Source: Vicugna vicugna
Taxonomy: Eukaryota
Assembly (NCBI GenBank): GCA_013265495.1
Contig: MU057711.1
Span: forward strand, 744,001-808,000
DNA: 64,000 nucleotides
Direction: 5' to 3'
In this document: positions 21,585-52,751 of the stretch, piece after piece
How positions within the stretch are numbered: position 1 is the first letter of the stretch
How the letters are laid out: every line of letters starts with the position of its first letter
Position numbers and translations under genes: made by a program
The notes under the pieces: model-generated
Databases searched by the model: none
What the model saw: only the letters and a program-made list of their open reading frames with translations
What the model was told of the DNA's origin: nothing

Positions 21585-21817
21585 ATGTCGTCGGTGAGCC
21601 CCATCCAGATCCCCAGCCGCCTCCCGCTGCTGCTCACGCACGAGGGCGTGCTGCTGCCGGGCTCCACCATGCGCACTAGCGTGGACTCGGCCCGCAACCT
21701 GCAGCTGGTGCGGAGCCGCCTGCTCAAGGGCACGTCGCTACAGAGCACCATCCTGGGCGTCATCCCCAACACGCCCGACCCGGCCAGCGACGCGCAGGAC
21801 CTGCCGCCGCTGCACAG
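21585..21817 (+). CDS. LONP2: LONP2 exon 1 coding part, 233 nt (Lon N-terminal domain)
   Basis: Kozak-like caccATG; MSSVSPIQIPSRLPLLLTHEGVLLPGSTMRTSVDSARNLQLV...LPPLH(R); donor AG|gtaggc. Confidence 0.97.
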
Positions 21818-27178: not shown

Positions 27179-27331
27179 GTTTTTTTTTAATATATTTATT
27201 TATTTTTTGGTTGGGGGAGGTAATAGGTTTATTTAGTGTTTATTTGTTCTTAAAGGAGGTAGTGGGAATTGAACCCATGGCCTCGTGCATGCTAAGCACG
27301 TGCTCTACCACTTGAGCTATACCCTGCCCCC
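27179..27331 (-). mobile_element. tRNA-derived SINE (Vic-1-like)
   Basis: Reverse-complement head; TSD taaatcaag. Confidence 0.86.
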
Positions 27332-28504: not shown

Positions 28505-28739
28505 GATTGGGACAGCTGCACTGGCGGTCCAGGTTGTTGGCAGTAACTGGCCCAAGCCCCACTATACTTTGCTGATTACAGGCCTATGCCGTTTCCAGAT
28601 TGTACAGGTCGTGAAAGAGAAGCCATATCCCGTTGCTGATGTGGAACAGTTGGACCGGCTTGAGGAATTTCCCAACACCTGTAAAACCAGGGAGGAGCTA
28701 GGAGAACTCTCAGAAGAGTTTTACAAATACGCAGTACAG
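28505..28739 (+). CDS. LONP2: LONP2 exon 2, 235 nt (donor non-canonical in this sequence)
   Basis: tttttcag| acceptor; IGTAALAVQVVGSNWPKPHYTLLITGLCRF...FYKYAVQ; 3' end set by homology and frame with exon 3; followed by ATGAGT. Confidence 0.92.
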
Positions 28740-29882
28740 ATGAGTTGCTTTTAAGTTATTCCTTAAAACCCTATTTTGCTCGGTCTCTTCGTTGCCCTAA
28801 GATGTGATGAATGCGTTGAGTGGCGAATTTTTAGGACAGCATATGTTTAAATGATTTAGTAGTGTATTATAATATACTCATTTCAATTTGCTATTGTCTG
28901 GGATTGTACCTAAGACATACTAGCCAACCCTTCCTAAAATTTTTCCAAAGAGTATTTCTAGAGCTTTTCTTATAAGTTCCAGGGTCTCCATACCAGATAA
29001 TTATTAAACCTAAATAATCTTAAATATTAATATACTGTACAGAGCTATTTATCACTAGACTATCTAGGCATCAAATTATACAGGTTATGTTGGTTCAGAA
29101 GTCAAAGTCGCACTGTGACTGGTAATAAATGTGGAAGGTTAAGCCCGCGGTAGACTGATTTCAAGTGTGGTTAAACCTTGACCATCTAGAATGCTGGGAA
29201 GGAAGCACAGGTTAGGCATGCATTGACTATTGGGCTCTTTAATTCTAGGTTTGAGTTTTTTGGTTAACTCCAGATTGAACAGAAAGCTCATCCCATTTTG
29301 TTTCAAATCTTATTGAAATATATTATAAAATATATTTTTATATATAAAAATATTTTATCTATTGATGTAATCCAGTGATGAAACTGGATCTGTGAGAGTC
29401 ACGCAGCATGTAAACTGATCATTAAGAAGCATGTAGGGCAGGTATTCGTAGCGTGATTGTATTTGTACCTGATGTGGCATTTCAAGTGTGGTGAACATTG
29501 GAAAACTAGAAAATTTGGAGCTACAACTGCTGTTGGGGCTGAAAGGAAGAACCTACTTGAAGAAAGAACCAGAGCCAGTGAATATGCTGTTTAGGAATGA
29601 AGGAGGTAGAGGGGAAAATAGACTTTGCCTCTTTCTCTGGGTCATCCTCCTGGGTCTTCGTTCTCCTGTTGGACACAGCTTCATGGCTTCTTTCTCTTGT
29701 TCTTTATTTCTCCCCACTTTGAATCAACAGAAGAATTTTAAGCATATAAAGATTTTGCAATGACATTAAAGGAATTTTTGGAAAGAAACATAATTTTACT
29801 ATCATGCATCTGATTTAATTCTTGCTTTCTTCTGGTTTTGGTTCCTATTCAGTCTTATGTTTTGATTTTTGATCCATATCTA

Positions 29883-30335
29883 TTTTTTTATTGAGTTATA
29901 GTTAGTTTATAATGCTGTGTCAATTTCTGGTGTACAGCACAATTTTTCAGTCATACATGAATATATATATATATATATTTATTTTCATATTCTTTTTCCC
30001 ATGAGCTACCACAAGATCTTGTGTATATTTCCCTGTGCTATACAGTATAAACTTATTTATGTATTCTATATATACCTGTCAGTATCTACCAATCTCAAAC
30101 TCCCAGTCTGTCCCTTCCACTCTCCTCCCCGCTGGCAACCACAAGTTTGTATTCTGTTTGTGAGTCTGTTTCTGTTTTATATTTAAGTTCATTTGTCTTC
30201 TTCTTCTTCCTTTTTTTTTTTTTTTTTAAGATTCCACATATCAGTGATATCATATGGTATTTTTCTTTCTCTTTCTGGCTTACTTCACTTAGAATGACAT
30301 TCTTCAGGGATATCCATGTTGCTGCAAATGGCATT
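29883..30335 (-). mobile_element. Relatively young 5'-truncated L1 3' end
   Basis: T tail, L1 3'UTR motifs, TSD catatcta on both sides. Confidence 0.88.
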
Positions 30336-31239
30336 CATATCTAATTTCAATATTAAGTACTTTTATAAATTCCATTGATTCGGGATGTCATAATTATATC
30401 ATTTCTCTTCTTAGGCTTTAGGATTGTTTCCAATTAATGCTTTTCCTCCAACCCCTTGTACATCTGCTTCTACAGCCCTCATTGGTAGACCTCTTCAGTA
30501 GCTTCCTAACTAATCTCCTTCTAGCTTCTTCTTTCCCTGACCCACCTGCTCAGGAGTCCTTTCTCAGTAATCTTTGAGCATCCCTCTCCTGTGAGTAAGA
30601 GACTCTAATAGCTCTAGGATGAAGTTCACATTTCTTAGTATAACATTAAGGCCCTTCACACCTCTAGTTACTTCCATTTATACCTAAGGTTCTACCCACA
30701 CTGTACAGCAGAGAGCGTCACATTTTATTTCCCGTTTCTGTGATTTTTCCTTCTGTTCTCTCTTCTGGGAGTGTTCCACCTTCTTTGAATTTTTATATTT
30801 GATTTTTGCTTTCCCAGCTCCTGTAGATTGTTAATGCTCCTTTGCGTGTGTCTCCACAACCATTTAAACATCCCTTTTAACATAATGCTTATCACATTGT
30901 ATTGAAATGTGTCTTATGGGTTTGTTTCCCCTCCCAAACTAGAATTCACCCCTGCTTTAGCCATCCTGTACTGAGCACTATGTTGTGTCTGACAAATAGT
31001 TTGTACTCAATAAATACTCAGAGAATGAATTTTAACTGTTTTACTCTATTTTTTTAGGAGCATTTTCTAGTTTTGTTATCTACTTCCCCCACACCAGAAC
31101 AGCTTCATCAAAATTATGCTTTCATTCTTTTGGCTGTAGGCAGGTAACAGTTTCCAAGGTTACAGTGCTTTTAGGGAGGTTTGGTTATTACTGGCATATG
31201 AAATCTCGTTCGAGTGACTGTATGAGGATTCGGTACATT

Positions 31240-31630
31240 GTGAGTTAGTCAGTACGGGCTAAGTTTTGCTGTGTTAAGTACCCCCAAATCTCAGTCACAT
31301 AAGGCGACAAAGTTGTACTCCTCACCCGCACTTCATGCCTAAAACTAGGGGCAATGATCTCCCGAGTAGAAGTCACATAGGGACCCAGGTGGGTTGAAGC
31401 TTCATTTTAAAACATGCTTCCGTCATTGCTGAGGAAGGAAGAGGAAATGTGGCATGTTTCTCAATGGCTTTTAATGCTTCTGGCCAGAAGGAACTGTCAC
31501 CTCCCCTCATGTTTCATGGTTGAAGGCAAGACCCACAGCCACATCTGTGTTCAGAAGTGAGAAAGAGCAGCCCCCTACCATGTGCCCGAAAGGACAGGGG
31601 ACTCTGTCAGCAGCCCCAGTGACTATCACA
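31240..31630. mobile_element. MaLR (MLT1-type) LTR remnant
   Basis: ggctaagttttgctgtg...ccccaaatctcagt and cctaccatgtgccc motifs. Confidence 0.5.
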
Positions 31631-32324
31631 GTTACTGAAAGCTTGCCTTGAGCTTAATCTGTCGTAGCTCCAGGATGTCCCCTAGAAGTTGTTTTAAAAA
31701 AGATCACTCATAGTGCTCAGATTCTAGCTAACCCAGTGTTCTGCTAAAAAAAAAAAAACAACAGCATTTCGGTACTGATTGGTTAACATAATAGCCTTAA
31801 CCTTGTTACCTTTCCAGAATTGGATAATTATACTGATTGTGTAAGAGAATGCCCTTGTTCTTATGAACAAAGGTCATGATGTCTGCGATTTATTCTAAAA
31901 TGTTCAGCAATAATTGTGTGAGTGTATAAAAGAGAGGGAGAGAAGGCAAATGTGGCAAAATGCTAACAGTTGGTGAGTTTAGGGGAAGAATATTGGGGGA
32001 AGGAGTTTACTATCGCAACTTTTCTATAAATTTTGATTTTTTTCAAAATCATAATAATATAAAATCACAAATTTACAAAACCTTTTATAAATATTAATGT
32101 TATCCATTTTTGAGCCATTTTTGCTTTTCATCATGATTGACATTTTAAAAGTACTTCTTTTTTCCTCTGAGGTGGGTAAAAATGCCTGGATATAATAATC
32201 GGTGATCTTTCAAAAACAAATACTTTCTCTGAGGCCCAAACATTAAACTTAGATGATGGTCTGATTTTTTAAATCTACAAATAATGCCAGATTTAATTAG
32301 AAAGGCTTTTTTTTTCCCTTGTAG

Positions 32325-32456
32325 TTGGTTGAAATGTTGGATATGTCTGTCCCTGCAGTTGCTAAATTGAGACGTCTTTTAGATAATCTTCCAAGGGAAG
32401 CTTTACCAGACATTCTGACATCAATTATCCGGACAAGCAACAAAGAGAAGCTCCAG
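32325..32456 (+). CDS. LONP2: LONP2 exon 3, 132 nt
   Basis: cccttgtag|LVEMLDMSVPAVAKLRRLLDNLPREALPDILTSIIRTSNKEKLQ|gtacag. Confidence 0.96.
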
Positions 32457-32592
32457 GTACAGTGTGCCTTCTGAAATGCCAAGTTGCTATGGCACTTTTC
32501 ATTTGGGTCTAGATAGTGAGTAAGTTTTAACTTTCAGGTAAGAGATACTGGAGACTCCTAGAAGTACTTAAGATGCTTTTACGCTTAAATTG

Positions 32593-34070: not shown

Positions 34071-34193
34071 ATTTTAGATGCTGTGAGTCTGGAGGAACGG
34101 TTCAAGATGACCATACCACTGCTTGTCAGGCAGATTGAAGGCCTGAAATTGCTTCAAAAAACCAGAAAACACAAGCAAGATGATGATAAGCGG
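34071..34193 (+). CDS. LONP2: LONP2 exon 4, 123 nt
   Basis: tttcctcag|ILDAVSLEERFKMTIPLLVRQIEGLKLLQKTRKHKQDDDKR|gtaaat. Confidence 0.96.
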
Positions 34194-36720
34194 GTAAATA
34201 CTTCTTTTAATCCATTTCTTCAGTTTTCTCGTTGTTTTTGTGTGATGTGAAATTCAGGGATTTTTGGGGGGAAAAAAGGGAGGAATAAAGAAAGGAACAA
34301 AGAAGAAGTAAGTCCATTGTCTCTTACATTCAGGTTACTGATACAGTTTTCGATTCTTGTTTGCTTCCCTACCTCTCCGTGTCTGAGTTCTTTTTTTTCT
34401 TTTAAGCATGTAGACATTTTCTCATTTTTTGTTGTTTCTTTTGGTAATCATCGAAAGGGATAGTTTACTAAGCTATTTCTCTTTCTGCTAGACGTTGTGT
34501 GATGTTTTCAATGTTTTAAAAATTACCTTTCAAGTATAACTGTTTTCACTGCATGTAGTATTTGTTAAGAACGTACCACAAAATTGTTTCCTAAAAGGAC
34601 TCTGTCAGTGTGTTGTGCCCTAATTTGGCTGACTTTTAACTTAATAAATGTTTCAGTTTTCATTTAGTCAACTGAGTCTTTTCCTGTCTTCTAAACTTAG
34701 AGACCATCTTTCCTCCAAATATCCACTTTCTTTTAGTTCTCCTTTAGCTGATTGTTTAAATATTTAACTCTTTAGCACGTATGTTTTTATTTTGCTCTAA
34801 CACATTCGCCGCCTCACCCAAATCTAGGTGAGAGTTGTGTTTCCTCAAGGGCACCCGATCCACAGTGGGCGATCAATGTGTTAATAAGGTGAAGACAGCA
34901 GTTATATTTTTCCCCTAATAGCTTTCTATTTAATTTAACACCATTATTAAATAATGCTTCAGTTCCCCATTGATTTGTGACACCTTTATTATCATATATT
35001 GCATTTACTTGGATGATGAAATCTGCCTGAAGACTGCTTGGAGCTGTTGATCTTACTGTTATGCTGTAGGCACAGTTAAGATAGTAAAGTAGCTTTGATG
35101 TGGACAAGGGTGAAGATGACAGCTCTCTGAAAGCAGTGGGAGGTTAAGTGAAAGGTTGAAAATAATGTTGGAGATTTGATGCCATCAGCACAGAAACATT
35201 CCTCCATCTAAGAGACTACATTGTGGAGAAGGAAGAGCAGAAGTGAAGGATTCCTTGCGGGTGGGACTCAGGAAGGAGTGGGGAGGTAGGCTGAGAATGA
35301 TGGGAGAGAGGGGAGTCACTTATCTGTGGCGGATGTTCTAGGACATCGTGGGCGGCATCTAGGACATCGCACTGTTGAAAGCAAACACCAGAAATCTCAG
35401 TTATTTCTGGCTTGAGATCGGAGCACTAACTCAGTTACTCATTTTGTGCAGAAAGACAAACCAACGTGTACTCTGCATTGGGAGACACAGAAAACTTACA
35501 GCTCCCTATCAATAAATAATACCATTGCTTAGACAGAGAGTTGTTCAGAATTGCTCTAAACAAGCAGCAGCTGAAATGCAGCAATCAGAGGCTAATATTT
35601 GGAGTTTGCCTAAAACTGATTCTTTGCCTGCTCCCCTAAGAGTTCGAAAGTGCTCTTTTAGCAGCTAGAGGAAAAACTGCATGAAGAGTCCTTTCGTCTC
35701 AACAATGAAATAATTGATGTGTTCTTTAAAAATCTAACTTAAAAAATATTTTATTTTTGGTTTTTTATACTTTAAAATATTTTATTAATTTCATCTGCTA
35801 ATGACTTAAGGAAGAATAACAGTATATATTTAAATTTTGTTTCTATAAAATTAAATATTTTTCACTGTTTTTAAGCTTTTTATATTTGAGTAAGTTCATA
35901 GGTTAAAAAATAAATTCCAAGGCTTTTAAATTGAATACCAGCATACCATTTTGCTCCAGTAATGGCTAGAGTAGATTCATGATGTTAATAGAGAATTTCA
36001 AAAGAGCACAAAGGTAGTTTTTAAATAAGATAGAGAGCCTTGGAGAAAGAGAACTTATATAGGACTGTTTGACTTGGCATGGGAGACTGTTTTTGGATTT
36101 CAAAGAACAATTTCAGCGTGGTAGAAACAAAAGACAAAAGTACTGAGTATGAGTCACTGAAGTAATTGGTGATGAAGAAGCAGGACATCACGAGAAGGGA
36201 AGTAAATCATGTGTAGTAAACTAGGAGGGACCGTAGGTAAGATGGAATGTTTTGAAAGGAGAAGGACTTTTCTGTGTGTTGAAGACAAAGAAAATAAAGC
36301 CAGTGGTGAAAAGATTAAAGATGTTTGAAACTTTGTAGTGTAGGTTGGAAAAGGAAATTTATTCAGTTGCCAAATGGTAAATAGTAAGTATATCAAGAAA
36401 ATAGTGGCTGCAGTAATAACTCCAAAAAAGATAATTCCTAGATGTTTTAATTATTTCTAACAGCCAGTTCCTTGAATTTTTTCCCTCATGCTGGTCATCT
36501 AAGCAATGCCAAAGAACCATGTCCACCTTATATTGGTCTGCTTTTTAAATTCTGTAGCCTCCATGTGTGCACGTGCCTCCTACTTACCATTTTCAGCTTC
36601 ATAGTTCCTAAAGATTTAGACTCTAGCCAGAAAAATGTTTCTTCAGCACCAGTTATAACCTTAAGTGTAGCTAAGTACTTTGTTTTCGATTTATTTTGAC
36701 TCTTTTACTTTCCGCCTTAG

Positions 36721-36884
36721 GTTATAGCAATACGCCCTATTAGGAGGATTACGCACATCCCAGGTACTTTAGAAGACGAGGACGAGGATGAGGATAATGA
36801 TGACATTGTCATGCTAGAGAAAAAAATACGAACGTCCAGTATGCCAGAGCAGGCCCACAAAGTCTGTGTCAAAGAGATAAAAAG
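36721..36884 (+). CDS. LONP2: LONP2 exon 5, 164 nt
   Basis: ccgccttag|VIAIRPIRRITHIPGTLEDEDEDEDNDDIVMLEKKIRTSSMPEQAHKVCVKEIK(R)|gtaaat. Confidence 0.96.
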
Positions 36885-36955
36885 GTAAATTGTGGAAGCT
36901 GTGCATTCATGAGTATCTTCATTTTGCTTATTAATGTTAAAAATATTGCTCACGG

Positions 36956-37167
36956 ATTTGCAAATATTAACTGCTATATAGAAAATAGATAAAGAAGTTC
37001 CTTCTGTATAGCACAGGGAACTGTATTCAATATCTTGTACTAACCTATGATAAAAAGGAATATGAAAATGAATATGTGTGTGTATATGTGTGACTGAAAT
37101 GCTATGCTGTACACCAGAAACTGGTGCAACATTGTAAACTGACTATACTTCAATTAAAAAAAAAAAA
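36956..37167 (+). mobile_element. Short L1 3' end with poly(A)
   Basis: tatagcacagggaact...acattgtaaactgactatacttcaatt-A12; imperfect TSD ttgctc(ac/gt)gga. Confidence 0.85.
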
Positions 37168-37794
37168 TCGTTGCTCGTGGAAATGAATCTGCTATTTTGC
37201 ATTACAAAGCTGAGTGATTTGTTTTATATTCTTTGATCTTTCTCCTTTTTTTGTATTTAATATAGTCATGGACCACTCTAGTCATCTTTCCATTGTCAGC
37301 CTTAATCTCTTTTGTCTCTTGGCTTTCATGGCTTTTCTAATTCTCAGGGTATAGCTGCAATCTATGGAATACTTTTCCTTCTTTCCTAAACCAGAATCTG
37401 ATTCGTAAAACATTCTTAAGACTCCTGAATCAATACCGCTTTCAGGAATCTTGTTCTCAAATATGGAATATAAGTGACACAACTCTTCTACCTACCGTGT
37501 GCTGCCAGATACAATCACTGTTGCAACTGCCTTTTCATTGTCTTAAATACTTGGCCCACACTTGTTTAGACAGTAATGTTTGTTCAGTATATATTTGTGT
37601 TCTTTACACCTTTCTGTTTTATTCCTTAGACTATAAATTCTTAGAAGGCAGGGACTGTCAGTTTCTCTTTGTTCAGGATAAAGTGCAAGGGAACCTTGAT
37701 ACCAGAATAGGGCATATGGGTTGATTACATTCTCTGGATGATCTCAGGGTTAAATAGAAAACCAGTTTTTTTCTTTACCTACTTGCAGTGTTAT

Positions 37795-37987
37795 TCCTGT
37801 TTTTTTCTTTTCCTTTCTTTCTGTCTGTCTTTTTTTTTTTTTAGTAATCTTTCTTTTTTGTTTTTTTTTGGGGGGGTAGTAATTATATTTATTTATTTAC
37901 TTATTTTAGCAGAGGTACTGGGGCTTGAACCCAGGACCCTGTGCATGCTAAGCATGTGCTCTACCACTGAGCTATACCCTCCTCCCC
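37795..37987 (-). mobile_element. tRNA-derived SINE (Vic-1-like)
   Basis: Reverse-complement head, long T-rich tail, TSD tacttgcagt. Confidence 0.86.
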
Positions 37988-38605
37988 ATACTTGCAGTAT
38001 TGTAACTACGTTGCATTTTTTTTTATGAGTGAATTATAAGCAACCTGACTGAATGCTCAGTAACTGAAGATTTGGCTTCTGAGGTTCACAGTTAAGAACA
38101 TAAGTAAATGTACTTGAGGTCTATTTTATATTGACTCTGACATCAGTTAATAAATGCAGAACATCTGTTTTGTACAGAATACTATTTAATAAGCACTGCA
38201 TATATTATGGAAGTTGTACTTTTTAATTAAATATCTCATGAGCTGGCTTCATCTCTGATACAGAACAACATGTAATTATTATGCATGGTTAGGCACTTAA
38301 ATCTTATTGTCATAAGTAAATCAGTATGTAAGTGTGACTTGAGACTCTCCCTGTGAGATATTAATGTTGATAAGACCATATTTCAAGGATAGCATTAGAT
38401 CTTGTCCACTCTACCCCAGTTTACAAATATCTGTTTAAAACAAAATAATCATTTTAATAACTAGATTAAAAATTTTTTTTTCAGTTTTGTTTGACCAAAT
38501 ATATATGATATATCTGACCAAGAAAAGGAGATATGCTTGATTTTTCTGGTTTATGGAATTTTTCTATGTTCTTGAACAGGTTTGCTATGTATTCTTTCCC
38601 CACAG

Positions 38606-38700
38606 GCTCAAAAAAATGCCTCAGTCAATGCCAGAATATGCGCTGACGAGAAATTATTTAGAACTTATGGTGGAACTTCCCTGGAACAAAAGTACAACTG
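38606..38700 (+). CDS. LONP2: LONP2 exon 6, 95 nt
   Basis: ccccacag|LKKMPQSMPEYALTRNYLELMVELPWNKSTT|gtgagc. Confidence 0.96.
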
Positions 38701-41700
38701 GTGAGCAAACAAAAGAGCACCTTTTCCACAGCCTGTCACCCGGAAAGCTCATGCAAATTCTGTAGAAATACTGATTACCTCCCTGTCACAGGAGTTCATG
38801 ATGTAAACTGTTTAGAGACTGAACCTGAGTCACCTAGGTCTTAGGATTGAGCAGGAAAAGAAGGTGCTGCATGAAAGCACCCTTCACACGATTTGGAGAA
38901 AGTAGGATTTTCTGTACTTAGTGAAATATGTGTTTTCAATAGCAATAGTCAATCAGACAGCAACTTTTATATTTATGTCAGGAGCCAGAAGAAAACCAGC
39001 ACGTTTGAGGCAGTTGGCAATAAGTGCCCAGTCAGTCCTAGAGATGGTAAAGCTTTGTGTTTTCTAAAAGAAATAATTACGGATAAAGTCAGGATCACAG
39101 TAGAATGGTTTCACCATTTGGAAGTTTGTTTTTCTCCCACCAGAACCTGTGTAAAGAGTGTAGATTCTTTTTATCCCTCTTTCCTTCAATAGAATTTTTC
39201 TGTCCATCAGGAGCATTTTACACTGGTTTTCTTATATCTTTGCTTTGTATTTTCTCCTAGGATAAGAAATATACTTAGTTGTCTTTCAGAATTATTTTAT
39301 TTGCATCAGTTACTATAGAAACAAGATTTATTGAGTTCAGCAGTGGATTGATTTACCTCAACTACTCTTGGCATAAGAATAGCTGTATGGTTGAGTTTTG
39401 AGAATTCAACAGATTTATTTATTGATTATCCAGGCTGATGAAACTCCTACATTTAAAATGGTGCTAGAGATTTTGATAAGTGTTAGCCCTGAAACACACG
39501 TTTATGTGCCACATAAGGTATTTTTTACATACCAGATTTCAGGATGTTGAATTTTTAACATTAAATACTTTCCTGTTGACCTACAGAGGACTGTCCTCTT
39601 TGGTATGGAGAATTAAAATTTTTTTTGTCTCACAGAGGGCCCAGAATGAAGCATATTTATGTTCAATTAACTGTGCTGGGGCAATGTTAAGGTTAAAATA
39701 CCTCCCCCCCCCTTTTAATTAGCTTTTTTTGGGTAGGATCATTTAACAGTTATTAATGTGTATAGCTAGATACTGAGATGAAATTGGCCTAATCATCTTC
39801 CTTCTGTTTTGACCACCTTTGTTTTTATTTATTTATGTATTTTGTTTTGACCACCTTTAGATTTTATTCCTATTACAGTTCTTTGGTTCTTGTTTTGGGA
39901 AGCAAGTACATTCTAAGTTAGGCTAATTTTTCCTTTAGGAATATTCTGTAATTTTGCATTTATTCCAGTGTCTAGATTTTGGTTTAAGTGTCTCTTTCTG
40001 TTTGAATGTTTGTAAATAAAGTTATAAGGCTAATTGATACTTTGTTTTCTGTTAAATTCTGGGAATCCATAAATTTTCCTTAGGTTAAATCAGGTTATAC
40101 TGGTGAACTATAGGAGGAATCGTTCAGAAGCAACACTGGTAAATTTTTTCTTTATTTTCCAATTTTATTAGGGTATAGTTGACATACAGTGAACTGCACA
40201 TATGTAATGTGAACATTTTGATGAGTTTTAACATAAATGTGTAACTGTAGTACCATTACCATAATCAAGGAAATGGACATACTCATCACTTCTAAAAGTT
40301 TCCTCATGCTTCTCTGTGATTCCCTCCCTGCCTTCCCATTCCCGAGCAACCGCTGTGGACTAGTTCATATTTCCTAAAATTTTGTATAAATGAAATGATG
40401 TAGTATGTGTCCCCCTCCTTTTATTTTTTTTTTGGTTATTTCCCTCAGCATAATTATTTTAAAGTTCATTCTCCATGTTACTGTGTATATCAGTGATTGG
40501 TTTATCCATTTACCTGTTGATGGACATTTGTATTGTTTCCAGCATTTTAACAACTGTATATAAACTTGTTCTGAACTATGCTGGCAAATTTATTTTTTAA
40601 TTTATTTCATGTTTATATTTATGACAAAATATTGCCTTCTAGTTGAAGGTGTTTTACCAAATAAACTGAAGCCAAATATCTTGGTTTAATTTTTAATTCA
40701 GAATTTTCTGGAAACACCATAGTAAGTGAATGCAGGGGAGCGTGTGTTCCCATTGATTTAGCCCCAAGTTGTCAGCTGATCTGTTTGAGTTCAGATGTCT
40801 GTCTGGATCCAGCTGGGCTATGGGGAAATCCATTTTGGTTCAGATTGTCTTCTGTTAACTCATAACTCTCCAGTGCCTGCTTTTAAGTGAAGTGGCCCTA
40901 TTCTTAGAGATTTGAAGAGGGCCCTGCTCCCTGTTAGTTTAGACCTGGGAAAGGAATTACATTTAACCTTCATGTGTTTAGCTGCTCTGCTTCCATCTCA
41001 TCTGCCAAGCTTCCATGTTGGTATGTGTTTGCTAGGTATTTGTTTGTGTCATTGATGGAGTCATGATGATACCCAAATTCTGTTATTTTCCCTTTTGACC
41101 ACAGTGTGACTGCATGACATGAAGCACGTCTACATAGCTTGGTAATAACACCAACGGTCTTGTTTTGAAATTTTGGTGTTCTCTCGGTAATATTTTTCTG
41201 CACTCCAGGATTTGTTTTAACTAATGACTTAAGTGAGGGTGCATATAGTGTAATGGCCTGAGAATATTAAAATTGCAGATTTCATTATTTGGTAGTAGTA
41301 GCCTAGTAAGTTGCTCTTGCCTTCGTCCCTCCCTCACTTGTCCTTTTGATAAAGTGAAATTCATGACTAACGAGGACTTTTTATCAGGTTCACACAATGT
41401 AATTTTGGACAGTTGAGGCCAAAATGTTTATTTGAATGCAGAGTGCTGACTCCCATTTTTTACTGAAGTAATCCAGAAAATAGAAAATTAAGGCAAAGCT
41501 TTTTTTTTTTTTCACAACTCAGAGAGTTTATACTGGATGTGTGTGAGCATCATAAATGCGTAGGACTCATGGAGCCGTCATGAAAATCCTCCTGGTCCAG
41601 CATTTCAGCTGGGAACTGAAGATGGGTAACCTGTGGTGTGAAAGTAGGCATGTTGAGCTTCTGAACCATTACTACATAGACTTAGGTCTAAGTGGTTGTT

Positions 41701-43195
41701 GTGGGTCAGGTTATAAAACCATGAAAATGTCTTCCATAATCCTTGTAAGACAAGCTTATGTCAGTAGAGATTATCAAAAGTAGAGAGGAAAGCAGAGATG
41801 AATGAGTTGTAGGAAATAAGTTTCTTGATTTTCCCATCTTGGGAGCCAGTAGATACCATTTCAATCTTCTGATTATAAATAGAGAAATATATGTTCCAAC
41901 AGGTTTGAAATTTTTTACATTTAACCATGAGTATTATTCAAAATAGTAAGCGTGCATTCTGAATCATTAAAAAGAGCAATCAAAAAAATGCATCCTGTAT
42001 AGAAAAGATACACGATATATAACATGGAAATTATCTTTCCTTAAAAGTTTGAAGGAATGTAACTTTTTAAATTGTCTTTACTTGGCATGTTAGAAGAAAT
42101 TCCTTCATTGCTTTCATTTTTTTCTAAAATACACAGAATTCTATTCTTTGTTTACTGAACGTTAATCAAGAATGGATGTTACATTATAACAAGAGCCTTT
42201 TTAGTTACAAAATGACATTTTTGATGGAAAGTTTTTCTCCTTGGATGTGATAATGTAATAAATATGTTGATAACTTTATACTGAACCGTATTTGCATAAG
42301 TAAAATAAGTCCCACTGGGATTTAGTAGATTACTCTTTGAATAGATTTGATTTACCAGCATTTTAATATTTAGAGCTATGCAAAATGGAATTGGTCTGAA
42401 GTGGTTTCTTTTAATTTACTGTGGTAGGTTTTAGTGTCAGAGCCAGCATCGTAAAACAGGAAACTTTCTTTCATTTGTTCATATATTCATTGGTTGGGTT
42501 CTGAAACCAGGAAAGGGGGAAGAAATTTTATTCTTTCCTTTCCAAATCACTCAGCCAGGACTGACTAAAATCCATAGTACTATAAATTACATGTATTGCT
42601 GATTAGCTAGGTTTTTATAGACTAGCTTAGGAACCAAGTTACGATTTAAGGGCTTTTTTTTTCCCCCTGTAGGAAAAACACATGGCAAGTTCCAATAAGT
42701 GATTGAAAGAGTGGACGTGTGTGTGTGTGTTTCTCTCTCCCATTTTCTTCTTTTACTGTCGGTATGATCACATGGTTGTGGATTAGCTTCTGGCTGCCGC
42801 CCAGCTGATGAATTCATTTTGGCTTCCAGGGCCTAGTGTTTAATCGGTGATTATTTTAGGTACTAAAGCACATCAATAAACCTGATGAAAGCTTGGATAG
42901 AAGCAGGGCCTAATTCATACATTTCTGCTGAGACTTTAATCGATAGAACTTAGGCAGTTCTTTATGTCTTAATTTTTTTTTTGATCCAGCCCTTCTGTTT
43001 TAGAAAATTAGCTGAAGGAAATAATTACAGATGTATGTGGAGATTTAGTTACAAGGACTCACAGTGAAGCATGCTTTATAACTGTAAAGATTTGTAGATA
43101 GCCTAAATGCTCAGCAATAGGGAATTAGTTAAATGAGTGCGATTAAGTAATGGAATATTATGCAGCCACTAAAATGTTACTGAAGAGTACATTTG

Positions 43196-43231
43196 CAGTC
43201 AAATGCTCTTCCCCAGAGCTATACCCCCAGG
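43196..43231 (-). pseudogene. Tailless retropseudogene of the tRNA-Cys(GCA) 5' half
   Basis: Minus strand reads GGGGGTATAGCTCTGGGGAAGAGCATTTGACTG(CA); flanked by a perfect 17-bp direct repeat actgaagagtacatttg (43179-43195, 43232-43248). Confidence 0.85.
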
Positions 43232-43840
43232 ACTGAAGAGTACATTTGACACTGAAAAAGGTCCTCAATGTGTTAAGTGAAAAAACTTTTCCAAAACTTG
43301 AACTCCTCATAGAATCTTATTTTGAAAAATAGGCATGTAAGGGTTCATGTGCACATGCACGCACACACAGAACCTGGAATAATTAGTGTTGAAGTGAAGG
43401 TGGTGCTGCTTTCTTGGGGGCATGAGATTATGGGGACTATTTCCTTCTGATTTATTCATGTCATTAGGTTTTCTGGGATGAGCATATATTCTGTAATAAA
43501 CAAAAAAAGGAACAAATACCAGGACAAATAGAATATGTATAAATTATGTCTCCTTAGAAATAATGTGTATCAAGAAAATCATTCCCAAATGAAATGATAA
43601 AAGAATATTAACTCTTTGAGTTTTTAATTATGTAGTTTCTACTCTTTCTGTAAATACTAAATCTTCTTAAGCAAAAACCCAAATCCAGTTCTCCCTGAAG
43701 ACTCATTTAGAAGGATCCAAGCCTGTTCTTGTCATGTCTTTTTTTTCAAAAGAATATTTTGGCTCTTGCCAGCCTGAAAGGGAATTCTTCTATGTAAAAA
43801 TTCCACATGCTCAGATTATTTCTGTTGGATTATTTGGCAG

Positions 43841-44099
43841 ACCGTCTGGACATTCGAGCAGCCCGGATTCTCCTGGACAATGACCATTATGCCATGGAAA
43901 AATTGAAGAAAAGAGTGCTGGAGTACTTGGCTGTCAGACAGCTGAAAAACAACCTGAAGGGCCCCATTCTGTGCTTTGTCGGCCCTCCTGGAGTTGGTAA
44001 AACAAGCGTGGGAAGATCAGTGGCCAAGACTCTGGGTCGAGAGTTCCACAGGATTGCACTTGGAGGAGTGTGTGATCAGTCTGACATTCGAGGACACAG
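43841..44099 (+). CDS. LONP2: LONP2 exon 7, 259 nt (AAA+ Walker A)
   Basis: ttggcag|[17 protein letters not shown]...GPPGVGKTS...DIRGH(R)|gtagaa. Confidence 0.98.
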
Positions 44100-44963
44100 G
44101 TAGAATATTTCTTTCAGTTTCATCTCTGATTCCCTTCCTTTTCATATGACCAGAGTCCCCCAAAAAGCCAAGGCATAATATATATCTTAAAGGGCTATTT
44201 GCGGTGCCTTGAGTGGAGAGGACTAGCCTAGAGCCTCCACCATGACGTTATACCTACATTAACCTTGCTATGTGTGTGGCGATGGATGGGGTGTCTGGGC
44301 TGCAGCTTTCCTGGAGTCTCATTTGAATGTAATTACAAATTCATTGTGATTAAGTATTATAATGTCTTTACATTCATTTTGGCCCAGTATCATTTCATAG
44401 ATAATGACCCATGACTTTTAGAGTTTAAAAAATAGCTGGGGCTGGTAGAAGGAGGTAAGAAGTCTTTGGTAACAAATGTATTATATTTGCAGTTTAAACA
44501 TTGTTTTAAGAAGGATGATTTGCAGTGCAAGTATGAGTAATAAGGTAAAAGGTTAGGATAATTAAGGCCTTCCCTTGCATTTTGACGCCCTTACTATAAA
44601 AATACGTTCAACTGTAAGAACTGTGTCTCTGACTAATCTGACATTATTAGAATCAGATTTGCATGTCACATTCATTGTTTTGTTCTCTGTGGTCTCTGTT
44701 GCTCAGATTGGAAGATGCTTTAGGAAAGTGTGAACCTCTATTTCACAGTTGCGAATTGTAAGAAAACATACCTATAGTACAGAAGTATTTAAAAATGTAA
44801 AAATCATGAACTGCTTAAAATAATATGATGTACACCTGAAACTAGTATGATGTTATATGTCAATTATGTCTCAAAAAAAACCTTAAAAGGAGCTGTTTAG
44901 CTTTGAGTAGAAAGTAGTTAAACTAAAGATAAAACTTCTGTCCTTAATACTGTACCCTCAATC

Positions 44964-45033
44964 TTTTTTAAAAATTTTTTTTTTAATGGAGGTGCTGAGG
45001 ATTGAGCGCATGGCCTCATGCATGCTAAGCATG
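44964..45033 (-). mobile_element. 5'-truncated tRNA-derived SINE
   Basis: 3' half of the SINE head only; TSD accctcaatctt. Confidence 0.8.
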
Positions 45034-48000
45034 AACCCTCAATCTTAAAGTTGTAAAAGCAATCCAGATTATAAGTGGAGACTTTGGCAGGCATGCCAGG
45101 GCAGGCAGTGAACAACTGCCAGTAGCTAAGGATAATTTAAATGCATATGTGCAGTTTGGTGAATATGGAATACATGTGGATTGTGGGGAAAAAAAAGAAT
45201 GTGATGCTTTTATAAAAACATCTTATTTTCCACTTGACTTATTCACAGGATCTTTAGGCAGGGATGGGAAACTATTTCAGAAACTTTTGAAGAAAAATGG
45301 TTCTTTTTATTCTCTTTTGTTTGCTTATTTACAATTCTTAGGCATTGAAGAAAATCATTCCCAGATTTTTTAATAAACAAGCAGTGAAGACTGCAGATTA
45401 GATCAAGGAATTGATTTGGGGTTATTCTTTCTGGCAGTTTCAAGTGATAGGATGTTTCTGTTGCCCAGACTGTCTTATTCTCACATGTGCCACTAGGGGC
45501 TGTCATTTGCTTTCGTAAAGAAATCGGCAGGCATCTTGGACCAACCTTGGAGAAGCTGGATCTAAGGCCGAAATCTTCTAATTTTAGCTTCAGAGCTTTA
45601 GGGAGGTGTTCCCCATGCAAGTGACTTGATTCCTGCCCTCAGAGTTGTTTTTGTTTATCTCTTCCTTTCGTTATCTGTAGCAGTATTGTGTAAGAATTTG
45701 AAGGAATTTAAAGAGTGGGTCTGTGGAGTTACTGTCAGGTGAAATTAACGTCCGTGGGCACATGGCATGTAGGTGTTTGTCCTTATTTCTTTCTACATTG
45801 GTATTGATTATTCATTAAGGCTTGGAAAGTGCTTAGTGCCTCGCACACAGTGAGCATTCAATAAAAGTGAGCTCTAATTATTATTTTAATTCTAAAGTCT
45901 CAGGAAGGCAAGTTGAGATTTATAAGCTTCAATATGACTTTTTGTAAAATACAATCTGATTTTTAAACTGTACCTAAAATATTCTGTTTTTGGCATTATT
46001 GTCTAATTTACGTGGCAGAATTGTGAAGTTTATTTTATGATCCTGTTGGTGGACAGTATGTAATGTTGTAATTCCATCATTTCTTAAGAACATTGTGGGG
46101 TTTAAGCAGATCTTTGTTTTAAATCTTTACTGATATTGATTGATACAAAATTATTCACTTTTTTCAAGTGTCTGTACTTCCCCTGTGTGACTATCACAAA
46201 GAGAATTGAATCTGTAAAGAAAATAAGAACTATTTCCTTCACGAGTGTTTTGTGAAAGAGCTTGTGTATTCATCCAAAATCTGTGTAAATATAAGCTTTT
46301 TAGAAATGTGTAGAGGTTGTGATTGTTGCCAAGTAACAGGTATGTGGTTTTGTCTATGAAGCCTGACTTTTGATGCAGCTTGCTGGTCAGTACACGTGCT
46401 CCCTAGCCATCACTGGGTTAGGTGTTTCATTTGTGCTCTTGGGGACTTGTTACCAACCTGCCCCCTAAATTATCAGAGCCTGCAGAAAATTTTTATTTGA
46501 AAACCTGTTTGGAAGCAGGTGGAGAGTGGGGAGTGGCTGTTAAGAGGAGGAGGGGGTCGAGAGCAGAGTATGCGTTTATGTCAGAGTTATGGGTCGGAGG
46601 AGGAGAAAGAACAGTAGAGGATTCTAGCACAATCATGGGGTGGAGTTGGCAGGAACAAGTGGTTCCACATGACAGTGGAGGCCTTTGGGAACACCCAGGT
46701 CTTGGCATTTAAGTACTGGTCACATGCTCACAATTAGAGTTCATGCAAAGTTTTGTTTTTCCTCAGCCTGTGAGTAGGCACTACTGTTCTGCAGTCTGAA
46801 AATAGCCAAGGAAAAACAGAGCTGCTTTCTGTTATCTTCCTTGCTTATTCTCTTGATTTTGTCACACACTTTCTGTGTTTTCCCATGCACGGAACTCCAG
46901 TCTTTTGTGAGAAGTACCTGTTTACAGGAAGAAGAGTGCTAATGAGTTAAGACTTGATTTTTAAAACAACCTAAGTCATGTCTTTTAGAGTTAAAACGAT
47001 GGTGAGGCAAGAGATGGGGAGAAAAAAAAACATTTCGTTTGCATATAAATCTTAAACTGGGAAAATAATAGTTATCTGACTAAACGTTGGCCTGCTGTTT
47101 TTGTTCATATTATTTTGAACTGATTAAAGGAAAAATAGTTGTGCTTATTTTCCATATTAACTAATGCATTTTTTTCAGTGTAAACATTTTTCATTTCTCA
47201 TCCTCTCCATTGGGATTTTTCCGTCTACTTTTATAAGCCACAGAATCTCTGTTCCCATCTATCGGTTTTTATGACTTACATTTTTATATTTAAATATTAT
47301 ACTTAAATAACTTAAATCAGTTCATAGACATTAAATGTAAAGTGACTTCTTTTAGGATGAAGTTTTAGGAAATCATGTTTGTATAACAGTCTCTTTTTCA
47401 TTAGCTGTTCCTTGGTGAGATATAGTATTGTGACATTTCTTAAGTTATTGTCGATACTAACTTTTCAGAAGTCACTTACCTCTGTTTGCCCAGATAATAA
47501 AATTGTATCACTGCAGGGAACCCTTGGCTCAGTTTTCAAACAAGATGAGAAGAAAAACGAGCTTTTTCTTTCCATGGTGATACATTTTCATACGTAACCT
47601 GAAATTGCTGATGTTTTAAATAAATTAGCTGTTTCATTATTAGTCTCTACAAGGGGGAAATAACTGAAGCAGCAAGCACTTAATATATCTCTAGCATAGT
47701 ATGCCAGAAAGGGTACAGTTTGCTCACTGTCCTCCTTATAACCTGTATTTGCATACAGCTCGTCTTCGCCCTTCTAAAACGTGCGGGTTTATTTTTAAGG
47801 CCCTAACCCAGGGCTTCCTCCATTAAGATGAGTGCAGTCAGTTATGACCCTTCTCTCCTGTAAACTGACCGCTTATTATCTATCATGTTCTTGTAACGAT
47901 TGACACAGACCTTTGTTGTTTCGAGCACATACCCGTAGAGATAAAGCATATGTAAAAAGGAGGAGCACTGTGGAGTACGGCTTTTCCATGTCTCACACTC

Positions 48001-49553
48001 CTCTGCATCACTCTGGGCTGCCGAGCACGGTACCGCGTGCTCTCTGAGTGCTGTATGAGTTCAAGGAAGAGTAAAACGTGATTACACATTGGAAGTCATG
48101 CAGTCCTTTAGGTGAGCGCGCCCGTGCAAATGAATGTATGGAAAGATTGAGGGATGACTGCTCTAAGAACAGTTGGATTGGTTTAGACCTGCTATACTAA
48201 AGACTATTTTTAGTTCTTGAAAGACTCTTTCTTTTTTAAAAAGATCATTAGGATCTCTTTTAGGGTTATTATTTTTTCCATTTTGAGATATATGTGTGGG
48301 TGTGTATCTGTATATATACATACACATACATACATCCTTGGTAGAAAATTTCAAAAATAAAAGGGAAAAAAATCCCCCTGTTTTTCTGCCATACAAAGGT
48401 AATCACTTTCAGCATGTTATTTCCTGCCAGATGCTTCATTGAGCAGCTTTTGCCCTTTTTTTTTTAAAGCAGCTGAATTATAATCCTGCACTTTCTACTT
48501 AATATTATATATAAACATTTTATATTACTAATTGCTTATGAATATAATTTTAATACTTTGTATTACAGCCCACAAGCACTCCTTAATTCAATTGAAGAGG
48601 CATGAAAAAAATTGGTAGTAAAAATGCCTGGTTTTCCCCCTTGTCTGCACACCTCATTCCTGACATGTAGATGTCCTTGGCAGCGACAGGCTGACCAGCC
48701 TTTTGGATCACATTAGATTTGAATCTACCCAGAGGTGGTGCAGAGTAGTAAAATAGTTGGTTATCATGGAGCTGTAAATAGATGATGTTGTAATTCCATG
48801 TAGTTGTTCTCTGAAGTATAACACAGACTACTTTTTGGAAAATGAAAAATGCTGATCTCGTAACTTAAAATTTTGAAGTGTATAGACGCTTTTGTTTTTG
48901 CATATCTTATACACTAGTTGAATGGCCCTGAAAAGGCTGTGAACTGCCTGTAACAATTACAACTATGAGTTCATATATTTTTAAGTTAACTTGTATACTT
49001 CAGTTTTAAGAAAAACTCCTAGGTCATTATGTATTCAGGCTGAATAAGTACTCGAAGTGAAACATTCTTTGCAAACTTTCCTGTATTGTGCTGTATTGCT
49101 TTTTAGATGTTGTACCATAAGGATGACTGTAGAAAAGACAGTTATGTTTACCCTCAAAAAGGTTGGAGTTTGTAAACTCTAGTTTGTTGTGCTAGTTTCA
49201 CTTACTTCCTACCTATGCAGTTTCTCAGTAGGAAATTTTGATATGCTAATTTGTTTTTAAAATGTTTGTGTTTGGTGATGTTGAAAGAGAACATTTTTGC
49301 TTGTATATTGCTACATTTTTCAGCATCTGATTCATATTGCAAAGGTGTATTCAAAGAATATTCCATATCTTCAGTCAGCAAATTGCATGCTACCCATACC
49401 TTCTGGTAAAGGACAAGCACATCATAGGTATTTTCTGTAGCTTATGGGCTCTGACGATACTTGTTTTCTTGGTTTGACATCTTGACCTGATTTGACGTTT
49501 GGGGACTTTACCTGTGATTGAGCAGCTCTGAGGATGTTGAGTGTGTTTCATGC

Positions 49554-50101
49554 TGTTATCACCGAGCAAAGGGCTCGTGTGTCCACTGCACAGAAAGCCG
49601 AGCTCTGACAGCGGGTTTATAGCAAAGGAGGGGTTTATTGCAGGGCGCTAAGCTAGGGAGTGGGAGACAAACCTCAGGTCCACTCCTACTTGGTCTTTGA
49701 GTTAGGGTTTTTTTTTTAAAAGGCGTAGATGAAGAAGCTGGGGTTAATTATCATCTTGTGACATTTCTGTGACATTTCTTAGTCATAGTTTCAGGAATCA
49801 GGGTGTGTCTGGTTTATAATTTTCTGGCCAGGTGGTCCATGGCTCGGGGGTCTGTTAGCTCATCTTGCCCTGGAGAAACAACCTCAGTTAGTACGTTAAT
49901 AGTGATGTCTACAACAGCAATTTTAGTACATTAATGATGTTACCCACAACAGTAGTTTCAGTCATCTGACTCTGGTTGATCGGCGTTGAGTTACTGCAGG
50001 ATTCAGGTCAGAGGGGGCAAGAAAAGAATAACGTTTTGGATAAAGAAATTAATTATAAACTCAGTGAGAAAACTTGGTTTGAGGGTGGGGGCTCGGTTCC
50101 A
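49554..50101 (-). mobile_element. Solo ERV LTR, about 550 bp, antisense in LONP2 intron 7
   Basis: TG...CA termini, tttatt (AATAAA on minus) near 49634, relative CpG retention. Confidence 0.7.
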
Positions 50102-50114
50102 CTATGAAAAGACA

Positions 50115-50299
50115 TTTATAAGATTTGCTACGACAGGTTTCTTTTGTAGAGAACAGGGAACTAAACTATGTTCAATATCTTACAGTAATCTATAATGAAA
50201 AAGAATATGAAAAGGAGTATATGTCTGACTGAAACATGCTGTGCACCAGAAATTGAGACAACATTGTAAACTGACTATACTTCAGTTAAAAAAAAAAAA
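50115..50299 (+). mobile_element. Short L1 3' end with poly(A)
   Basis: Same 3' terminus as 36956-37167 (acattgtaaactgactatacttca-A run). Confidence 0.8.
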
Positions 50300-52609
50300 G
50301 TTGTCATGAGGTAGAGATTGAAATGAGACCCAAATTTAGGTGTACTGACTTCTGCTTTTGTATTTTTTTCAGGAAACCAGAAGTGGACTTTAAATAGCTA
50401 TTGCTAATAATAATTAGAGTTAACATCGTTTGAAAGCTAACTGTGTGCCAGACACTCTGCTGTGTGCTTTACCTGTTATGTTCTCTTGTGATCTCATGTA
50501 AATCCACCAGGATGGCACTGTGGTTATCCCCATCTTAGCAGATAGAGAGATACTTTGGATGCTGGCATAGCTGATCTGGTGTCCTTAAACAGGAGAAACA
50601 AGCTTCTGTTAGGGGAACAATCTCACGACTCTTAGATCCTACATCTAATCTGGATTAAGACCCACTCTGTCATCAGAGTGCTCACTGGCTCTTTTGAGGA
50701 GGCCGTATACTTGGTACCCAGGGATAAAACCTGGGTCGTAAGTATGTGTCAGGAGAATTGGAAGGCCAGCAAATGCTGCAGACATTGCATTATTGAAACG
50801 ATCACTTTGTGAGAGGTGGTTAGGAAAAGTTTCATAGAATTTCTGGAATTTATGTGGGTGGGGAGAGTCCTAAGAGCAGGAAGTTACCATATTAACAAAG
50901 GTTAAAAAAAAAACATAAGGAGTATTTAATAGGATCTTGATTGTGGGTGAAGCAAGAACATAACAAGTGAGTAAAGCTGTTGGGGGCTGGACTGTGAAGA
51001 GCCTTGAATTCCAGACAAAGGAGTTTGGACCTAATTCTCTAGGTTTAGGAAGCAGTGGAAAGTGTAGAAGGAATTGTTTATATACAGCAACTAGTATCTA
51101 GGTTTCCACTTCTTTAGAAAGGGCAGCTGCCTAGAATACTAGTTTCTTCCCATGACTTTAGGTCTAGAATTGTCAGTACTTATTTTTGTAATCTACCTGT
51201 CAAAAGCAGTAAGAAAAGGAAAAGAAATTAATGCAGCAAGAAATGACCATTAGAGGCTTTGAGGTTCTTTTGGTTTTTTGTTTTTTTAAATTTGCCATCC
51301 CTACTTATTCACAAAAGGCTGACAAATCTGTAAGTTCTCTAGAGGGATACTTCCAGGGGATTTATTAGTTTTGAGTCTTGGCCTTTCCTATACCCCATTC
51401 TGAAACCCTGAATGTGCTAATAACTGCTTATTGTAACAGGACAGTGTTTATTGTATCTAGTTCCAGGGCCTTGATCACTCCCCCAGATGAAGGGCATTCC
51501 CACGATATTTTTGAGGCTTCCTTGTCTTTTCAAAGGTCACTGTTTACTCTGCCCTACTTTACAGCAGTCATGTGGCCGAACCGAGCCTGGTCCCTGAGCC
51601 GGCTTTGTGCAGGTCATGAGATACAGCCCAGCCGCCGTCCCCCTTGCCGTTGGTCTGCTGCTCACAGGCACGCCCCCTTTATGCCTCTTCACAACAGCGT
51701 TTGACTTGTGCATGGCTGAGGCAGCAGGTTGTAGTTAAAACTAGTAAATCGCTGCTTAAAATAAAGTTTTTACTGGCTTTGTTTTAAAAAAAAAAGGCCC
51801 TTTTTTCCTTTTGACAAACATTTGTTTTTATTTCATATCACACTTTGCGTCTCAGTTACGTAGGTGATTCTTGTTCAGATATGTTGAAGCAGCCTCTACC
51901 GTGTGAATGCCCAGCAGAGTGTCTGGCTGGACTTGGTTATGCCAGTTAGTGTATACAGGATGAGCACAGTTTTATTCAAAAGGCCAGAAGTGATGGGATT
52001 TTAGCACAAACACTGTTGACCCCAGATCCTCTTACTCCAATTAATAACAAATTATTGCCTCTGAAATTAAAAATTTTGGAATTTTTCTTTCTTTTGGGGA
52101 CTACTTGTTGAGTGTCCCTTTGAGCCAATTCTCATTTCCTTCATGAAGATGGTGGTGGTGTTTTAACCAGCGCTGGGTCAGCCGTTTCAGTCTGTAAAAA
52201 GGAGGTTGTGTTGGGGGATAAGAAGTACCAGGAAGGAGGGTACTTGGAAAAACTGAAAAATATGGGAATTAAATTCATCGGGCTCTTTGGATGTTTTAGA
52301 ATCTTGAAGAATAAGAATAACTATGTGACTTTAAGAGTAATTTTTTTCAATTTCACTAAGTAGCAAGAATCAGATACAATGATTCCAGTACCCTGGGTTA
52401 AATAGAAAGACAGACAGAATTAAATAGAAAATAAGACAAGAATTGATACTCTTGGATGTATCAGAGGGCTTTTTAAATTTGCAGTACCTCTTGGCTGTAT
52501 TGCTCTGATAACTAAATGACTTTCTTCCGAGCCACAGTTTTGATGTCTAAATGACACTGCTCCTGCCTCCCGACATCTTTGTTGTGAATTTGCTGCTTGT
52601 CTTCTGTAG

Positions 52610-52751
52610 GCGCACCTATGTCGGCAGCATGCCAGGCCGTATAATCAATGGCTTGAAGACTGTTGGGGTGAACAATCCAGTGTTCCTATTAGATGAGGTG
52701 GACAAACTAGGAAAAAGTCTTCAGGGTGATCCCGCTGCAGCTCTGCTTGAG
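52610..52751 (+). CDS. LONP2: LONP2 exon 8, 142 nt (AAA+ Walker B); gene continues beyond the right edge
   Basis: ttctgtag|[47 protein letters not shown]|gtaaga. Confidence 0.98.

Follow-up and report, generated by a model that had tools for sequence, protein, structure and literature searches.

The window, that is, the whole stretch of 64,000 nucleotides that was analyzed, carries on its forward strand the first eight coding exons of LONP2, which were placed by tblastn with the Camelus dromedarius LONP2 model (P0006) as query. Coding exon 1 (21585..21817, +), recovered by tblastn, by the junction search, and in the gene model, begins with the ATG at 21585 and ends at the donor CAG|GTAGGC. 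Coding exon 2 (28505..28739, +) is 235 nt long and encodes (R)IGTAALAV...EEFYKYAVQ, as seen in the sequence, its translation, the tblastn alignment, and the gene model. Coding exon 3 (32325..32456, +), of 132 nt, encodes LVEMLDMS...KEKLQ, carries residue N177, and ends at the donor CAG|GTACAG. Exons 4 (34071-34193), 5 (36721-36884), 6 (38606-38700), 7 (43841-44099), and 8 (52610-52751) follow on the same strand, spanning 34071..52751, and have GT-AG introns. Exons 9-15 lie outside the window on the same contig, where a search of the assembly itself gave 15 matches. The rebuilt gene comprises 15 coding exons and a CDS of 2559 nt (852 codons plus stop) with no internal stop and no frameshift.

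The assignment to LONP2 is supported by several features. A Pfam scan of P0006, from which the product of the window gene differs at 2 of 852 residues, matched PF02190 (residues 13-220), PF00004, and PF05362, and the protein shows the Lon N-terminal substrate-binding domain, the AAA+ module, and the Lon_C protease domain that define LONP2. The window gene itself ends in NSKL and includes the C-terminal PTS1 tripeptide SKL. Among the matches listed, the top-ranking proteins all bear the name lon protease homolog 2, peroxisomal. The gene occurs as a single copy, at one place in its own genome; five weaker matches, with 44-63% identity, were located on another contig (G000:C6656:4060504-4068561) and presumably represent the mitochondrial paralogue LONP1. 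Six Rfam tRNA matches of 30-46 bits are scattered in the introns and flanks of the gene, four on the minus strand (27258-27323, 32612-32683, 32911-32982, and 37910-37981) and two on the plus strand (14072-14143 and 62295-62362). They are most simply read as the heads of tRNA-derived SINEs and not as tRNA genes.

Exon 2 ends with ...TACGCAGTACAG, its last base being 28739, and intron 2 begins with ATGAGTTGCTTTTAAG, with an A at 28740 followed by a T. At the 3' border the intron reads ...tttttttttcccttgtag (in a longer stretch, ...ctttttttttcccttgtag) up to 32324, and exon 3 opens with TTGGTTGAA (LVEML) at 32325. In the gene model and from its anatomy, intron 2 (28740..32324, +) is 3585 nt long with AT-AG borders. 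Its donor, CAG|ATGAGT (28737..28745, +), carries an A at 28740 where 30 read-through open reading frames (ORFs) or models of other vertebrates imply a G. Over positions -3..+6 this donor retains eight of nine possible pairs with U1 snRNA, the sole miss being at +1. When junctions were searched for over the 14 introns of the gene, 13 introns each had a single canonical GT-AG solution. In intron 2, AT-AG alone combines a terminal AG with the joined protein sequence AVQ|LVEML; two further offsets yield the same protein with AG-GT and GA-TA borders. Across the gene as it lies on the contig, the 13 donors other than this AT are all GT, and all 14 acceptors are AG.

The first-pass annotation had described this arrangement, with exon 2 ending in CAG at 28739, an intron opening with AT, the other donor positions fitting the consensus, and an in-frame joining to the exon encoding LVEML, and each of these points is borne out. 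It had also predicted that reading through the donor leads to MSCF and then a TAA stop, which the translation (AVQ-MSCF, then TAA) reproduces, and that skipping exon 2 would shift the frame, as it must because 235 is not a multiple of 3. It counted 12 other donors here, but the window, which contains exons 1-8 only, holds seven others, all of them GT. Around the junction, the 3' part of exon 2 is purine rich, with 39 purines among its last 60 bases and six GAR triplets, and the first 40 nt of the intron beyond +6 contain 45% T.

Other observations touch on the exons next to this intron. In twelve stored models, from many mammals, AVQ is followed at once by ILDAV, without the 132-nt in-frame exon 3, and in two it is joined to VIAIRP, encoded by exon 5. 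The donor of exon 2 is therefore one that normally works with several acceptors. A Camelus bactrianus UniProt model (P0007, 855 aa) reads KLQ-VQ.., past the exon 3 donor CAG|GTACAG (window 32457-32465), which implies an alternative donor some codons downstream.

An AT at the start of an intron raises the question of its class. U12-type donors follow the consensus RTATCCTTT (also ATATCCTTT), with a branch site TCCTTAAC located some 10-20 nt before the 3' splice site and no strong pyrimidine tract. Intron 2 departs from the canonical GT-AG type in having AT instead of GT or GC at 28740-28741. Outside +1/+2, its complementarity to U1 is that of a U2-type donor, and its 3' end (32303..32324, +) is also canonical: 15 of 19 bases are pyrimidines, followed by TAG, and TTAAT provides a candidate yUnAy branch site with its A at -29. 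Conversely, ATGAGTTGC matches the U12 donor consensus at only 3/9 positions, as the first-pass annotation had concluded in setting aside a U12 donor, and the best U12 branch-site match (5/8) lies 51 nt from the 3' splice site. With this donor, no TCCTTAAC branch site near the 3' end, and a clear pyrimidine tract, we rejected the U12 assignment. We also rejected membership in the AT-AC class, as the intron ends in AG and not AC. What the sequence presents is an AT donor and an AG acceptor in a U2-like consensus, and on these features LONP2 intron 2 is a U2-type, not a U12-type, intron. A motif resembling the U12 branch-site consensus, TTCCTTAAAA, occurs at 28760-28769, 21 nt into the intron; as this is the wrong end, the likeness was taken as chance.

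Stored proteins that read through the donor reveal the base at +1 in other vertebrates. All 30 such ORFs or models show AVQ-V, which corresponds to a GTN codon, and none of the 234 stored LONP2 proteins shows AVQ-M. The VSCF of the macaque and the MSCF of the window differ by a single base. As valine is found in 30/30 cases and methionine in none, the change is best polarized as G to A, from an ancestral donor CAG|GTGAGT, and the A at 28740 is by this comparison the derived state, one base away from it. Two stored proteins are unusual at this position. The macaque UniProt model P0002 (860 aa) continues past the donor of exon 2 (AVQVSCFCFFSKPICPS), contains the end of that exon a second time, and then goes on with AVQLVEML, a structure that looks like an annotation artefact. 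P0125, an ENA-derived entry of 121 aa, reads AVQHSR and is the sole stored protein with a residue other than V, L, or I after AVQ. The search of the genome itself found only the gene and the LONP1-like paralogue, and no processed LONP2 retrocopy recording the old junction.

Five proteins among the best 120 of 1108 matches are identical to the window over exon 2. They are NCBI or UniProt models from C. dromedarius and C. bactrianus and read AVQ|LVEML. The LONP2 of the window differs from the Camelus models by 2 amino acids in 852, and from those of hippo, pig, goat, zebra, cat, and human by 19-26. Residue 177 (window 32385-32387) is N in the window and S in all 11 compared proteins. It is the only private replacement of the window lineage, and N is also found in 5 of 162 stored proteins at this motif. 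Residue 617, whose codon lies outside the window, is A (GCT) in this gene, D in Camelus, and T in the six outgroups. The GCT codon is one step from both ACT and GAT, so that the gene holds an intermediate state, and the Camelus models therefore probably come from a sister lineage of the window genome. It follows that they provide no evidence on donor use in this genome.

We found no model of a camelid other than Camelus containing this exon 2 among the best 120 of 1108 matches, the 58 of 59 candidates, or the best 120 of 7928. Such absence would fit annotation pipelines failing at LONP2, although as an indication it is weak. Of 59 candidates among the short ORFs of camelid DNA contigs, 58 passed, and none was camelid-like (best identity 94%); these inform the ancestral state only. 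Full-length or RNA-derived camelid LONP2 was limited, among the best 120 of 7928, to the three Camelus entries P0006-P0008, with no form lacking VQ. Metagenomes were also scanned for host-contaminant contigs with a degenerate pattern spanning the exon end and the NT after it, and none matched.

The presence of the A in sequencing runs was assessed with 51 sampled 31-mers of the 501 bases at 28400-28900; 31 of the 471 possible words cover 28740, so that coverage of the A itself is deduced from the sampling. All 51 words were present in 14 DNA runs from 12 samples and six studies, with organism labels A and B. By our own arithmetic, the chance that 51 random words miss all 31 covering 28740 is about 0.03, and a run carrying the G would be expected to show a share of about 0.93 (a loss of about 3 of 51 words), against the observed 1.00. 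Seven of these runs, from two studies, carry no flag as a possible source of the window DNA; the other seven do. Since the run list comprises the best-matching runs only, it demonstrates a common allele and not fixation. In the run set of a relative (organism D), the share of sampled words present is 0.55. Five RNA runs contain exon 2 words, at a share of 0.35, and have organism labels other than A and B, so they may come from G-bearing animals. Furthermore, the candidate junctions differ by only 4-6 nt and cannot be separated by such word shares. The G to A change at 28740 seems, on these data, to be real and common in this camelid lineage. The first-pass annotation had left three readings side by side, namely a base-call error, a loss-of-function allele, and a lineage-specific shift, and it is the first of these that the 14 DNA runs indirectly disfavor.

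Three candidate cut sites lie around the end of exon 2, and we compared them by the number of U1 pairs at -3..+6 and by duplex energy in kcal/mol. Cutting in the AT register, at the old junction 28739|28740, would rely on 8/9 pairs and -5.5 kcal/mol and would give the normal protein in frame. Of the eight donors in the window, none has more U1 pairs than this register, and those of exons 1 and 4 have as many; the AT register also keeps AGU at +4..+6. A GT at +5/+6 (28744..28745, +) would be cut at 28743|28744; it has 6/9 pairs and -2.5 kcal/mol, and its use would add 4 nt and shift the frame. The third site is the exonic GTACAG 6 nt upstream (28734..28739, +), with the cut at 28733|28734, 3/9 pairs, and -2.1 kcal/mol; it is in frame and would delete V155-Q156. 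For reference, the exon 3 donor (cut 32456|32457), which has the hexamer of the -6 GT, shows 6/9 pairs and -9.1 kcal/mol. None of the 18 GT or GC sites from -40 to +120 exceeds six U1 pairs or a run of four. Direct use of the AT by the major spliceosome and the frameshifting GT at +5/+6 were both missing from the first-pass annotation.

We tentatively favor, as the best single reading of these data, a real, common, and derived G to A change that created a U2-type AT-AG intron still spliced accurately, if less strongly, at the old junction. A germline G to A substitution at +1 of intron 2 would have converted a strong U2-type GT-AG intron, with the donor CAG|GTGAGT, into a U2-type AT-AG intron. 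Because all the other donor positions are consensus, U1 snRNA would keep binding in the old register, and U6 would still find AGU at +4..+6. The purine-rich end of the exon and the U-rich start of the intron may assist the major spliceosome, which would cut at 28739|28740 and join the exon to 32325, giving the normal AVQ|LVEML protein. Efficiency would probably be reduced, with by-products from the +5 GT (frameshift), from the -6 GT (loss of VQ), and from exon skipping. The use of the AT-AG junction and the whole splicing outcome are what we infer from these features. Still more tentative is the wider proposal that a U2-type AT-AG intron has become frequent or even fixed in a camelid lineage, behind a constitutive exon of a highly conserved gene that has no other donor, and that the major spliceosome removes it accurately without editing and without a 3' AC.

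Published reporter experiments bear on this reading. Erkelenz et al. (2018) ranked noncanonical donors as GC > TT > AT > GA > GG > CT, and an AT site that otherwise matched U1 completely was the only one used when the competing GT sites were weak (PMC6280755). Usage mostly moved to the stronger of these GT competitors only once downstream TIA1 sites helped that competitor. In the same reporters, an AT site was cut at +1 with an exonic SRSF7 enhancer, also at +5 with both enhancers, and was unused without enhancers (PMC6280755). Against our favored reading, G to A at +1 is a classic class of disease mutation (PMC6280755; PMC4176328). The favored reading has a second difficulty, in the chemistry of splicing. 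In yeast and in in vitro mammalian systems, introns with G1 changed to A pass through the first step, but their exons are not ligated unless the terminal AG is changed to AC, and the intron described here ends in AG.

The alternative that survives best, possible in our view but on balance unlikely, is that the change is real and the donor yields no productive mRNA. Exon 2 would then be skipped, with a frameshift, or extended by 4 nt through the +5 GT, with a stop within a few codons, or splicing would stall, and LONP2 would be a young unitary pseudogene, a segregating null, or a strong hypomorph in this lineage. Changes at +1 form the main class of pathogenic 5' splice-site mutations, and the strict enhancer dependence of noncanonical sites in reporters, together with the cutting of AT sites in the +5 register, fits such a loss (PMC6280755). 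The frameshifting +5 GT and the frameshift upon skipping of the 235-nt exon also speak for it, an intact CDS is compatible with a recent event, and no protein model of the lineage itself containing exon 2 was found among the matches listed. The remainder of the gene argues in the opposite direction. LONP2 is very conserved, as the 19-26 differences in 852 residues separating the window from the six outgroups illustrate, so that a common null is unexpected. Neither the 2559 coding bases nor the 27 other splice sites show a further lesion, and the single private replacement, N177, is a residue seen in 5/162 stored proteins. Finally, the words were found in at least 12 samples under two organism labels, which is also unfavorable to a null allele.

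A second, improbable alternative is a shift of the donor, with the cut made 6 nt upstream at GCA|GTACAG and joined to 32325, giving an in-frame protein without V155-Q156. Activation of a cryptic GT is a usual outcome of +1 mutations, and this GT is the sole in-frame, stop-free one within -40..+13. The first-pass annotation had proposed it as an in-frame rescue and had pointed out that its hexamer is also the intronic hexamer of the exon 3 donor. Both the identity of the hexamer, which works as a donor in LONP2 itself, and the in-frame deletion of VQ hold in the gene model. The site is much weaker than that proposal implied, as it has 3/9 U1 pairs against 6/9 for the exon 3 donor, because GCA and not CAG stands on its exonic side. 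Its duplex energy of -2.1 kcal/mol compares with -5.5 for the AT register and -9.1 for the exon 3 donor, and its +4..+6 positions are CAG rather than AGU. The protein data are also unfavorable to this shift. Without exception, the 160 stored proteins covering the boundary between exons 2 and 3 show AVQLV[ED]M, and no stored LONP2 protein, out of 234, lacks VQ, so that V155 and Q156 are invariant. Moreover, AT sites outcompeted weak GT sites in reporters (PMC6280755). The two products would be distinguishable by their junction peptides, YALVEMLDMS... in the form without VQ versus YAVQLVEMLDMS... in the normal one, whose tryptic span is ...YAVQLVEMLDMSVPAVAK.

It is very unlikely that the A is an assembly error, or that the word evidence has been misread, and that the true base is a G in an ordinary CAG|GTGAGT donor. 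The word index is a sampled one and gives no certainty that a sampled word covers 28740, seven of the 14 runs containing every sampled word carry the flag of a possible source, and the Camelus gene models read the canonical junction. However, all 14 of these listed runs reach a share of 1.00, including the seven unflagged runs of the two studies. The local quality is good, with a CDS free of frameshifts and stops and 27/27 other splice sites canonical, and the Camelus models, probably from a sister lineage, are silent on this genome.

The weakest proposal is A-to-I RNA editing, in which ADAR would turn the A at 28740 into inosine and the spliceosome would see IU like GU. ADAR favors G least of all as a 5' neighbor, and the A at 28740 is preceded by a G. 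Although edited AT-AG to GT-AG introns are reported in human, including the U2-like one of C14orf37 (PMC4176328), we reject editing as hardly credible here because a double-stranded context is absent from the local fold (161 nt, z = 0.45, with 136 of 200 shuffles folding at least equally well) and from the inverted pairs listed (none of the 25 longest of 45 in 26700-30800 covers 28740, and the nearest arm is at 28701-28718), and nearly complete editing would be needed to support a constitutive exon. The probability left over belongs to mixtures of these outcomes and to causes that we have not thought of.

Whichever way the donor behaves, the locus is informative. If it is spliced at the old junction, LONP2 provides an uncommon, naturally occurring U2-type AT-AG intron next to a constitutive exon. 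It would reveal tolerance, at the level of the organism, of an A at +1 paired with a G as the last intron base, a single step from CAG|GTGAGT. The G-bearing sister lineage would then offer a built-in control, the ancestral GT form being preserved in close relatives, and the AT/GT pair would make a clean system for studying which context lets the major spliceosome complete both steps with an A at +1. If correct splicing has been lost, a camelid lineage would be carrying a common null or hypomorphic allele for its peroxisomal Lon protease, which would matter for the quality control of proteins in the peroxisomes of these animals. In both cases the site is an annotation trap, as one altered splice site is enough for homology-based pipelines to score the gene as possibly lost; the comparative annotators TOGA/TOGA2 label single splice-site lesions "uncertain loss" (bioRxiv 10.64898/2026.06.30.735536). 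Among the papers listed on LONP2 and camels, titles and the opening lines of abstracts mention nothing on splicing, and we found no print record of this site. A dromedary milk proteomics paper matched a spot to bovine LONP2 by MALDI-TOF, a weak sign that the LONP2 protein exists in dromedary, and it is silent on the window lineage.

Several known systems resemble this intron in part. Like pathogenic +1 G to A donors, it carries a lone substitution at the invariant G of a U2 donor, in front of an exon whose skipping shifts the frame. Unlike them, its words are found in at least 12 samples with two organism labels, and the gene shows no decay. U2-type AT-AC introns ("AT-AC II"; Wu and Krainer 1997, cited in PMC6280755) share the +1 A handled by the major spliceosome. 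They end in AC, which pairs with the +1 A, whereas LONP2 intron 2 ends in AG and the compensating change is absent. The U12-type AT-AG introns of ACTR10 and XPO4, which are AT-AG in human and GT-AG in mouse (PMC1557818), have the same ends and a similar lineage-specific switch between GT and AT at +1. LONP2 intron 2 differs from them in matching ATATCCTTT at 3/9 positions, in having no TCCTTAAC near its 3' end, and in its strong pyrimidine tract, and, as it lacks these U12 features, the tolerance of the minor spliceosome for a +1 A does not apply to it. ACTR10 is an evolutionary AT-AG example of Parada et al. (2014; PMC4176328), and since Sheth et al. (2006; PMC1557818) class it as U12-type, it provides no U2 precedent.

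The closest likeness is with U2-like AT-AG introns and AT 5' splice sites (PMC4176328; PMC6280755). As in these, the AT of LONP2 lies in a U2 context, CAG|ATGAGT, one base off the canonical dinucleotide, with a normal AG and pyrimidine tract at the other end of the intron. A GT at +5/+6 is present as in the reporter sites (PMC6280755), and the purine-rich exon end, which is enhancer-like, and the U-rich downstream intron complete the resemblance. Parada et al. (2014) described human U2- and U12-like AT-AG sites, of which some are edited to GT-AG and some are unedited (PMC4176328). Those human cases are mostly alternative or weakly used, whereas the LONP2 site, in a highly conserved gene, belongs to a constitutive exon of a length not divisible by 3 that has no other donor, and is predicted to be used as such.
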